Notes under the pieces: model-generated
Databases searched by the model: none
The model's input: only the letters and a program-made list of their open reading frames with translations
Told to the model about the DNA's origin: nothing
DNA from: Eledone cirrhosa
Lineage: Eukaryota
Reading direction: 5' to 3'
Assembly: GCA_964016885.1 (NCBI GenBank)
Contig: OZ024743.1
Coordinates: 200,260,001 to 200,324,000, forward strand
Length of the DNA stretch: 64,000 bases
Part shown: piece after piece, positions 54,987 through 55,194 of the stretch
Layout: every line of letters starts with the position of its first letter
How positions within the stretch are numbered: the stretch's first letter is position 1
Position numbers and translations under genes: made by a program

Positions 54987-55194
54987 GTAGTAACATAACA
55001 GTTAGTTCACCATACCGAGAACAATTGTTTCACCTTATGCGGATCTTCAGCTCGAGTCCGAGCTGAAGATCCGCATAAGGTGAAACAATTGTTCTCGGTT
55101 AGTGAACTAACTGCTGTGTTACTACTTCTACCAGACTCGTCCCATGGACTGAGTACTCTACCACTACGGATATTACCTTCCAGTGTTCTACCTT
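54987..55194 (+). mobile_element. Palindromic mini-element with a complete hammerhead on each strand (family B)
   Basis: Perfect 41-bp arms at 55014-55054 and 55059-55099, extending imperfectly to 54987-55125; tail ends at (TA)n. Confidence 0.8.
55058..55098 (+). ncRNA. Minimal type I hammerhead ribozyme (mirror copy on the minus strand at 55015-55055)
   Basis: ccgag-CTGAAGA-tccgcataaggt-GAAAC-aatt-GTT-ctcgg: 5-bp stem I, intact core, palindromic AATT loop. Confidence 0.75.

Follow-up and report, generated by a model that had tools for sequence, protein, structure and literature searches.

The stretch of DNA analyzed here, a 64,000-nucleotide window of Eledone cirrhosa contig OZ024743.1, contains a palindrome at positions 54,987 to 55,194 with a hammerhead ribozyme motif on each strand. 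Is this double motif an element in its own right, a switch kept by selection, or the residue of a larger element and of the way in which that element inserts? The explanation that best accounts for the whole, with a probability of about 0.8, is that it is a truncated insertion of a Hydra-type Penelope-like retrotransposon (PLE), and that it took shape at insertion through priming from the two cut DNA strands. The first part of this explanation is almost certain: the feature is a heavily 5'-truncated insertion of such an element, with two copies of its terminal repeat (pLTR) head to head in a (TA)n tract. That the insertion was built by reverse transcription primed from both cut strands is probable, judging from the genomic copies of the family.

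Anatomy of the palindrome

The perfect inverted repeat reported in an earlier, sequence-only reading of the window is borne out. It spans 55014-55099, with 41-bp arms at 55014-55054 and 55059-55099 and a 4-nt loop at 55055-55058, and is the mutation-free part of two longer arms, the repeat continuing imperfectly to about 68 bp (54987-55054 against 55059-55125). The folding z-score of the palindrome is -18.9, and none of 200 shuffles was equally stable. At the family's arm-to-arm divergence of 6.2%, a perfect run of at least 41 is expected by chance in 20% of 70-nt arm pairs, so the perfection of the 41-bp repeat requires no special cause.

Element positions are counted from C3 of the hammerhead core, which is set to 0 and corresponds to window position 55063. 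The antisense arm (54987-55054, minus strand) is a short pLTR copy without a tail, covering element positions -4 to +63 and ending at the short 3' end point. The sense arm (55055-55193, plus strand) consists of pLTR and tail, covers -8 to +131 and ends at the long 3' end point. The two meet head to head at 55054-55056 (plus strand), where 55055 is the A at which the 5' ends of the family pile up, a putative transcription start; the G at 55054 is compatible with the partner arm and with a copied cap alike. The tail had been put at about 100 nt, but since the inverted repeat runs to about 68 bp, the single-copy tail is only about 63 nt (55131-55193). On either side lie (TA)n targets (54891-54923 on the left, 55194-55209 on the right), and (CT)29 with a C-run (54924-54986, minus strand) is attached to the short end, possibly through reiterative copying at priming.

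A parent element of the Hydra clade

Both arms correspond to the 3' end of an element of about 2.4 kb that encodes a reverse transcriptase (RT) followed by a C-terminal GIY-YIG endonuclease. The PLE link suspected in the sequence-only reading is thereby supported, and the autonomous partner that it had proposed to look for is found. Copies that extend upstream enter an open reading frame (ORF) (30 loci examined, 13 translated, the long ones reading into RT and endonuclease), and twelve longer loci encode RT with a GIY-YIG-type endonuclease behind it. An open stretch of 485 aa runs through L063:1371-2825; it carries a CxCx5C linker, and its GIY and YIG equivalents have no cysteines between them. 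A complete ORF within one copy was not seen.

According to PMC8557442, the diagnostics of the Hydra clade are RT plus GIY-YIG, an RWK motif, DKT, a CxCx5C linker, no CCHH and (TA)n targets. In the present family, the RWK motif appears as RLRWR, with K changed to R (L062, L264, L268 and L271), and DKT stands in place of DKG as SDKT (L062, L264, L265, L268 and L279). The linker reads CSCRKPEAC in L063, L067 and L070. CGLC and CPH, the CxxC and CxH around the conserved E and N, are present in L036 and L041, with Y replacing the first C in L063, and CCHH is absent from the protein, as the clade diagnostic requires. At all 54 long ends and at 51 of the 54 short ends, (TA)3 or more lies no further than 120 nt away, in a genome that is itself TA-rich. 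A total of 488 relatives match the protein at E 1e-30 or better, and its ESM Atlas neighbours carry RVT_1, HTH_animal and GIY-YIG; a Pfam search of the partner RT and of L063 gave no match. By eye it resembles Hydra-1_Obim, and the clade assignment is based on the diagnostic motifs together with this by-eye comparison. The 12-nt hammerhead core word of the family has no match in the PMC8557442 supplement.

Genomic copies and their end points

The genome (3.0 billion bases in 1,796 contigs, rich in (TA)n) was searched with the feature, giving 2,918 candidates at the first pass, of which 40 were scored. The top matches are 90-95% identical across the whole 208 bases, and among the 30 best the outer ends are fixed and the junction differs. 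An exact 31-mer within the ribozyme has 282 matches and a 24-mer just behind it has 1,076, with none for reversed controls; the family thus comprises at least 1,076 arms in the genome. It is also present in three short-read contig runs of one sample.

Pairs were sampled from the first 100 of the 1,076 matches to the 24-mer, a motif common to all arms. These matches, all on contig C1, give 96 loci, or 91 insertions once four second arms and one duplicate are removed. Arms end either at +63 to +68 (short) or at about +130 (long). The 91 insertions include 66 head-to-head pairs. Eleven are not classifiable; the other 55 comprise 54 short+long pairs, one short+short pair and no long+long pair (p 1.6e-15 against 50:50). 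In a wider locus set, 96 of 108 short-range pairs are short+long, two long+long, two short+short and eight other; inspected by eye, the two short+short cases are split alignments and one long+long case is a tail running into the body. A genuine long+long pair (L018) does exist, as does a short+short pair (L214).

The two arms of a pair also share a history. A 1-nt deletion is present in both arms 11 times, in neither 52 times and in one arm once. Variants common to both arms occur at 0.0112 per site, 5.8 times the permutation mean of 0.0019 (maximum 0.0044 of 2000 permutations), and the arms have come to differ by 6.2% (80 pairs, 4,920 sites). Both arms of a pair derive from one source lineage and have decayed separately afterwards. 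Gene conversion between the arms was considered and rejected, given 305 private against 55 shared variants.

Among the copies are pLTRs from a partial tandem, inverted 5'-truncated copies and tails at one end. Two junction types recur at two loci each (L141/L199 and L139/L169), a recurrence that can be explained by microhomology. In about a dozen copies (L259-L288), pLTR and tail are followed by 100-300 nt of the 5' end of the body and then by a jump to another pLTR, as though the enzyme, on reaching the 5' end of the RNA, had switched to a bound region close by. In L058, near 1470-1500, a head-to-head junction contains a few TAACCC units that resemble telomere repeats.

Family A and other neighbours

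The sequence-only reading had suggested that the palindrome may belong to a second family, built by the same mechanism as family A elsewhere in the window, and the comparison upholds this: family A is also a Hydra-type PLE, 42% identical to the present family over 236 RT residues, and its adjacent pairs are short+long in 23 of 26 cases. A nearly whole family A PLE occupies 50866-53782, with a 395-bp inverted short arm and a long arm with a tail. Its RT and GIY-YIG endonuclease form two open pieces split by a stop (51350-52219 and 52220-53035), 42% and 30% identical to the protein of the present family, and Pfam gives a weak GIY-YIG match. GAAAC and a partly palindromic stem III are kept, and the best copies are 97-99% alike over the query. 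No CUGANGA core follows the family A start word at window positions 53640-53700 or in L230-L258, and it may be that this family spreads without a canonical hammerhead.

Further family A stubs lie at 517-697, 10900-11021, 46278-46326, 49814-49995 and 54774-54886, several of them short+long head-to-head pairs; the last uses the same (TA)n as the palindrome. The end of a third repeat family (55210-55300; also 50457-50600) abuts the (TA)n to the right of the palindrome and is found beside L010 and L237 as well. PLE-type families appear to stack in each other's (TA)n. Elsewhere in the window are another inverted repeat (42802-43132; 286 bp, 92% identical), broken fragments of a different reverse transcriptase, probably from a LINE (56919-57908; RVT_1, E 6.8e-06), and long CA-rich tandem arrays at 16835-23463, 6378-8137 and 27262-28834, with periods of 15/105, 72 and 54.

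The 5' ends of the arms

The 5' ends of 56 of 151 arms fall at -10 to +2, compared with seven at -23 to -11 and 17 at +3 to +15. Copies whose tail runs into the body start near -8 in only two of 29 cases. At the pile-up, an extra G precedes A(-8), window position 55055, where the element has C, in nine of 11 cases (p 0.0014 against 1/3). These loci were not picked by the window's junction, and the window's own copy was dropped. Three of the nine can be read from the partner arm, and the remainder give six of eight (p 0.02). In L028, G-AGTC stands at the ends of both arms.

The word around A(-8) fits the initiator consensus YYANWYY. A splice acceptor was rejected as the cause of the pile-up, as the 17 arms starting at -6 share no upstream exon. 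PLE promoters have been located in the pLTR (PMC2377424, PMC6765202), and an extra G in L1 and SVA has been read as a reverse-transcribed cap (PMC2912911). The extra G seen here may likewise be a reverse-transcribed cap, marking a transcription start near 55055. In family A the pile-up repeats at a similar start word and G is present in only six of 17 cases, so this reading of the G is held with moderate confidence.

The tail and its hairpin

The one-sided tail (55131-55193, plus strand) is the segment between the two 3' end points, and in tandem copies it continues into the 5' UTR and ORF. A few bases past the short end point it contains a bulged hairpin (55135-55154, plus strand). Family A also has a bulged hairpin a few bases past its short end point, with the outer 4-bp stem and the bulge in common and the inner 4-bp stem changed on both sides, at all four pairs. 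The sequence-only reading had picked out gagtactct as a tail motif shared with family A. Its GAGT is indeed the 3' strand of the conserved hairpin; its fifth letter, A, is a minor variant, found in 16% of arms against 82% with G, and G dominates in the short-read contigs too. Beyond this hairpin the tails of the two families are not detectably homologous, local alignment being no better than for shuffles (296/1000).

The hairpin pattern is not rare in itself (six in the window, all in the two families, against 0-4 per shuffled window); its weight comes from its position. It is a candidate signal for the start of reverse transcription. The same hairpin was not found past the long end point in L030. 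At least five CT units come after 23 of the 54 long ends and eight of the 54 short ones, and (CT)n of variable length lies between element ends and (TA)n both in the window (54924-54986) and at the ends of L133-L228. Such tracts possibly reflect a telomerase-like reiteration that would seed microsatellites.

How the insertion may have been built

The probable course of insertion is as follows. The RNA would start at or near 55055, 8 nt before the hammerhead core. The endonuclease would cut both strands of (TA)n. Two internal priming sites, separated by about 63 nt, would then be divided between the strands, each 3'-OH using one of them, and both priming events would probably take place on the same RNA. 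Synthesis of each cDNA would end by run-off at the capped 5' terminus of this RNA or close to it, and the cDNA ends would be joined through microhomology or a few added bases. Cutting and extension of both strands by a PLE protein have been reported in vitro, together with two internal start sites that define the tail (PMC11167929); from the genomic copies we infer the one-site-per-strand rule, the single RNA and the joining step. With arms 6.2% apart, these old copies offer mechanistic clues that are real but indirect.

An unlikely alternative begins with the same element and derives the inverted arm from self-priming, or fold-back, of one nucleic acid, for example an antisense template, a later staggered cut leaving the one-sided tail. 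Fold-back has been proposed for head-to-head Penelope copies with palindromic junctions (PMC3846280), and a staggered cut for the tail (PMC8557442). Such a process likewise predicts one short and one long end and variants shared between the arms, and it would also be expected to produce the 17 of 54 pairs that break within 3 nt of the same position, several of them inside short palindromes. However, if a target-primed cDNA folds back, the tailed arm must be the one that extends further 5', and it is the short arm that does so in 23 of 54 pairs, the long arm in 14 and neither in 17; seven pairs have no overlap at all. Run-off from a sense, capped RNA is suggested instead by arms that share the same terminal A with an extra G in front of it, as both arms do in L028. 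In addition, (CT)5 or more occurs after both kinds of end (23 long, eight short), as if both were priming sites, and both end points correspond to RT start sites in vitro (PMC11167929).

Priming from both cut strands can be taken one step further, to a proposal to which we give even odds: that PLEs integrate by programmed double priming on one capped RNA, each strand being assigned one of two fixed sites near the RNA 5' end, the inner site marked by the bulged hairpin, with the cDNAs running off at the cap and being joined head to head. If so, inverted pLTRs, one-sided tails and solo pLTRs would be explained in one step, and the 5'-end hammerhead would be a decapping or maturation device and not one that releases monomers. 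In the in vitro system, ribozyme mutants insert normally (PMC11167929).

The hammerhead motifs

When both strands of the entire window are scanned with relaxed criteria, exactly two type I hammerhead motifs emerge; C3 lies at 55063 in one (plus) and at 55050 in the other (minus). The type I core CUGANGA / GAAA / UH with stems I and III is present in both arms. The plus-strand motif (55058-55098) has Hydra-clade anatomy: stem I has 5 bp, stem II has 2 bp with U.U on its flanks, stem III is palindromic and the triplet is GUU; the predicted cut is at 55093/55094. The minus-strand motif (55015-55055) is the same except that its first stem I pair is U.G, and its predicted cut is at 55020/55019. The earlier description of a full type I hammerhead in each arm therefore holds for the motif and needs amending in its details, as stem I on the minus strand begins with U, not C, and stem II has only two pairs flanked by U.U.

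A search with the type I model, suggested in that description, matches both arms only weakly (Rfam Hammerhead_1, RF00163; 16.1 and 16.0 bits against a gathering threshold of 34; E 0.31). The R10.1-Y11.1 pair that closes stem II is absent, with U.U in its place in 253 of 263 arms, and a strict scan demanding the 10.1-11.1 pair gives no match. The U.U arrangement is found in many of the Hydra motifs listed in the PMC8557442 supplement. The 150 matches listed by a whole-window Rfam search are microsatellite-driven miRNA matches and were set aside.

The motif had been described as a minimal hammerhead of the dimer type, and the predictions agree: stem III is palindromic, and the homodimer formed through it is predicted at -20 kcal/mol, against -3.3 kcal/mol for the monomer hammerhead fold. 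Competition between the long hairpin and the catalytic fold, also proposed earlier, is likewise predicted. In the 41-mer the hammerhead fold lies 2.3 kcal/mol above the best fold. The gap is 5.5 for the 138-nt sense arm and grows to about 72 for the palindrome on either strand, where the predicted probability of stem I is 0.0 on both strands. The long hairpin is thus predicted to block both ribozymes. With the arms head to head, the antisense arm is always transcribed first, and in any read-through transcript the hairpin would be expected to trap the ribozyme.

It is very unlikely that the antisense arm is kept by selection, whether to switch the ribozyme off or to supply hairpin-derived small RNAs for silencing the element. 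The predicted cost of about 72 kcal/mol to open the hairpin on either strand would suit such a role, and a 68-bp hairpin, if transcribed, would be a substrate for small-RNA pathways. However, the arms are not homogenized, standing 6.2% apart; one ribozyme is kept intact in 32 of 88 assessable arms, and both in none of six assessable pairs. Stem covariation, the absence of which had been named in advance as half of a refutation, is absent within this young family: no compensatory stem changes are seen among 356 arms, and a subfamily change disrupting the terminal pair of stem I lacks a compensating partner in 20 of 20 'AG' cases. Across the published Hydra families in the PMC8557442 supplement, stems differ yet still pair. 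Changes in the hammerhead core number 42 against 56.4 expected (n 1188, p 0.048, the background including subfamily variants), a weak hint of constraint. An in vivo cleavage footprint was sought, and no clear one is seen: two of 151 arms start exactly at the cut site (+31), and ends near +28 to +36 mostly resemble deletions or repeats.

The idea of the double hammerhead as a unit or switch is not supported by the layout of the copies either, as the junction varies from copy to copy and both arms reach the hammerhead core in only 26 of 54 pairs. The two hammerheads are likely passengers, and the palindrome a by-product. An independent non-autonomous hairpin element, retrozyme- or MITE-like and copied as a double-hammerhead unit, is scarcely credible: it would fit the 90-95% identity of the best genome matches over 208 bases and the 16 of 54 pairs in which both arms start at -12 to +2 and look alike, but the 30 best matches differ in junction sequence, the tailed arm is the left one in some copies and the right one in others, lengths form a gradient between 30 nt and 2.1 kb, and no tandem arrays of the double-arm unit were seen; the copies are scattered, arranged head to head and connected without a break to an element that bears an ORF. 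The family is new; its clade and its layout are already known.

Relation to known systems

The ribozyme side of this locus is ordinary, since opposite-strand double hammerheads follow from the known inverted layout of PLE insertions. For the Hydra clade the literature already records inverted ends, a tail on one side only, (TA)n targets, this hammerhead anatomy and hammerheads on both strands, and an inverted pLTR beside a pLTR with tail is already drawn in PMC8557442 and PMC3846280. What makes the family valuable is the natural record that it provides, with hundreds of stubs whose end points are fixed and with candidates for a start site, a cap signature and a start hairpin. PMC8557442 names the origin of tandem and inverted PLE insertions as an open question, and among the papers listed by a literature search, none proposes twin priming for PLEs in its title or abstract opening.

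The closest relatives are the Hydra-clade elements of PMC8557442 (Hydra-1_Obim, Hydra-1_Ajap and Penelope-13_HM), which are also under 3 kb, with RT followed by GIY-YIG, RWK-like and DKT motifs, a CxCx5C linker, no CCHH and (TA)n targets. Their hammerheads likewise lie close to the 3' end, stem II is bordered by U on either side and the triplet is often GUU, and Penelope-13_HM has a hammerhead on each strand through an inverted 5'-truncated copy. The present family differs from the clade in a stem II of only two pairs, a tail of about 63 nt where 30-40 is usual, and RWR in place of RWK. The head-to-head pLTR, one-sided optional tail, junction palindromes and initiator-like start in the pLTR are shared with the EN+ PLEs of PMC3846280 and PMC2377424. 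In contrast to those described there, the copies here are mostly pLTR-only stubs, numerous enough for statistics, and their pattern favors two-strand priming over self-priming.

Minimal PLE hammerheads (PMC4209133) are also of type I, with a short palindromic helix III and a predicted dimer, and in Schistosoma pairs of them lie on opposite strands 100-700 bp apart. The motifs here lack their G10.1-C11.1 pair and have a short helix II where theirs is 7-8 bp. Non-LTR retrozymes are head-to-tail tandem monomers without a family ORF, whereas the copies here are dispersed, head to head and ORF-bearing.

Two systems bear on the mechanism. For PAc, the Poseidon element of Anolis studied in vitro, PMC11167929 describes two RT start sites bounding the tail, extension of both strands, an AT-rich target and a dispensable hammerhead, as would apply here; PAc belongs to another clade, and that work shows neither joined head-to-head products nor a one-site-per-strand rule. 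In L1 twin priming with a copied cap (PMC2912911), two target ends similarly prime on one RNA, the cDNAs are joined and an extra G marks full-length copies. The second site in L1 is variable and the pieces do not overlap, whereas in the present family both sites are fixed and most arms overlap.
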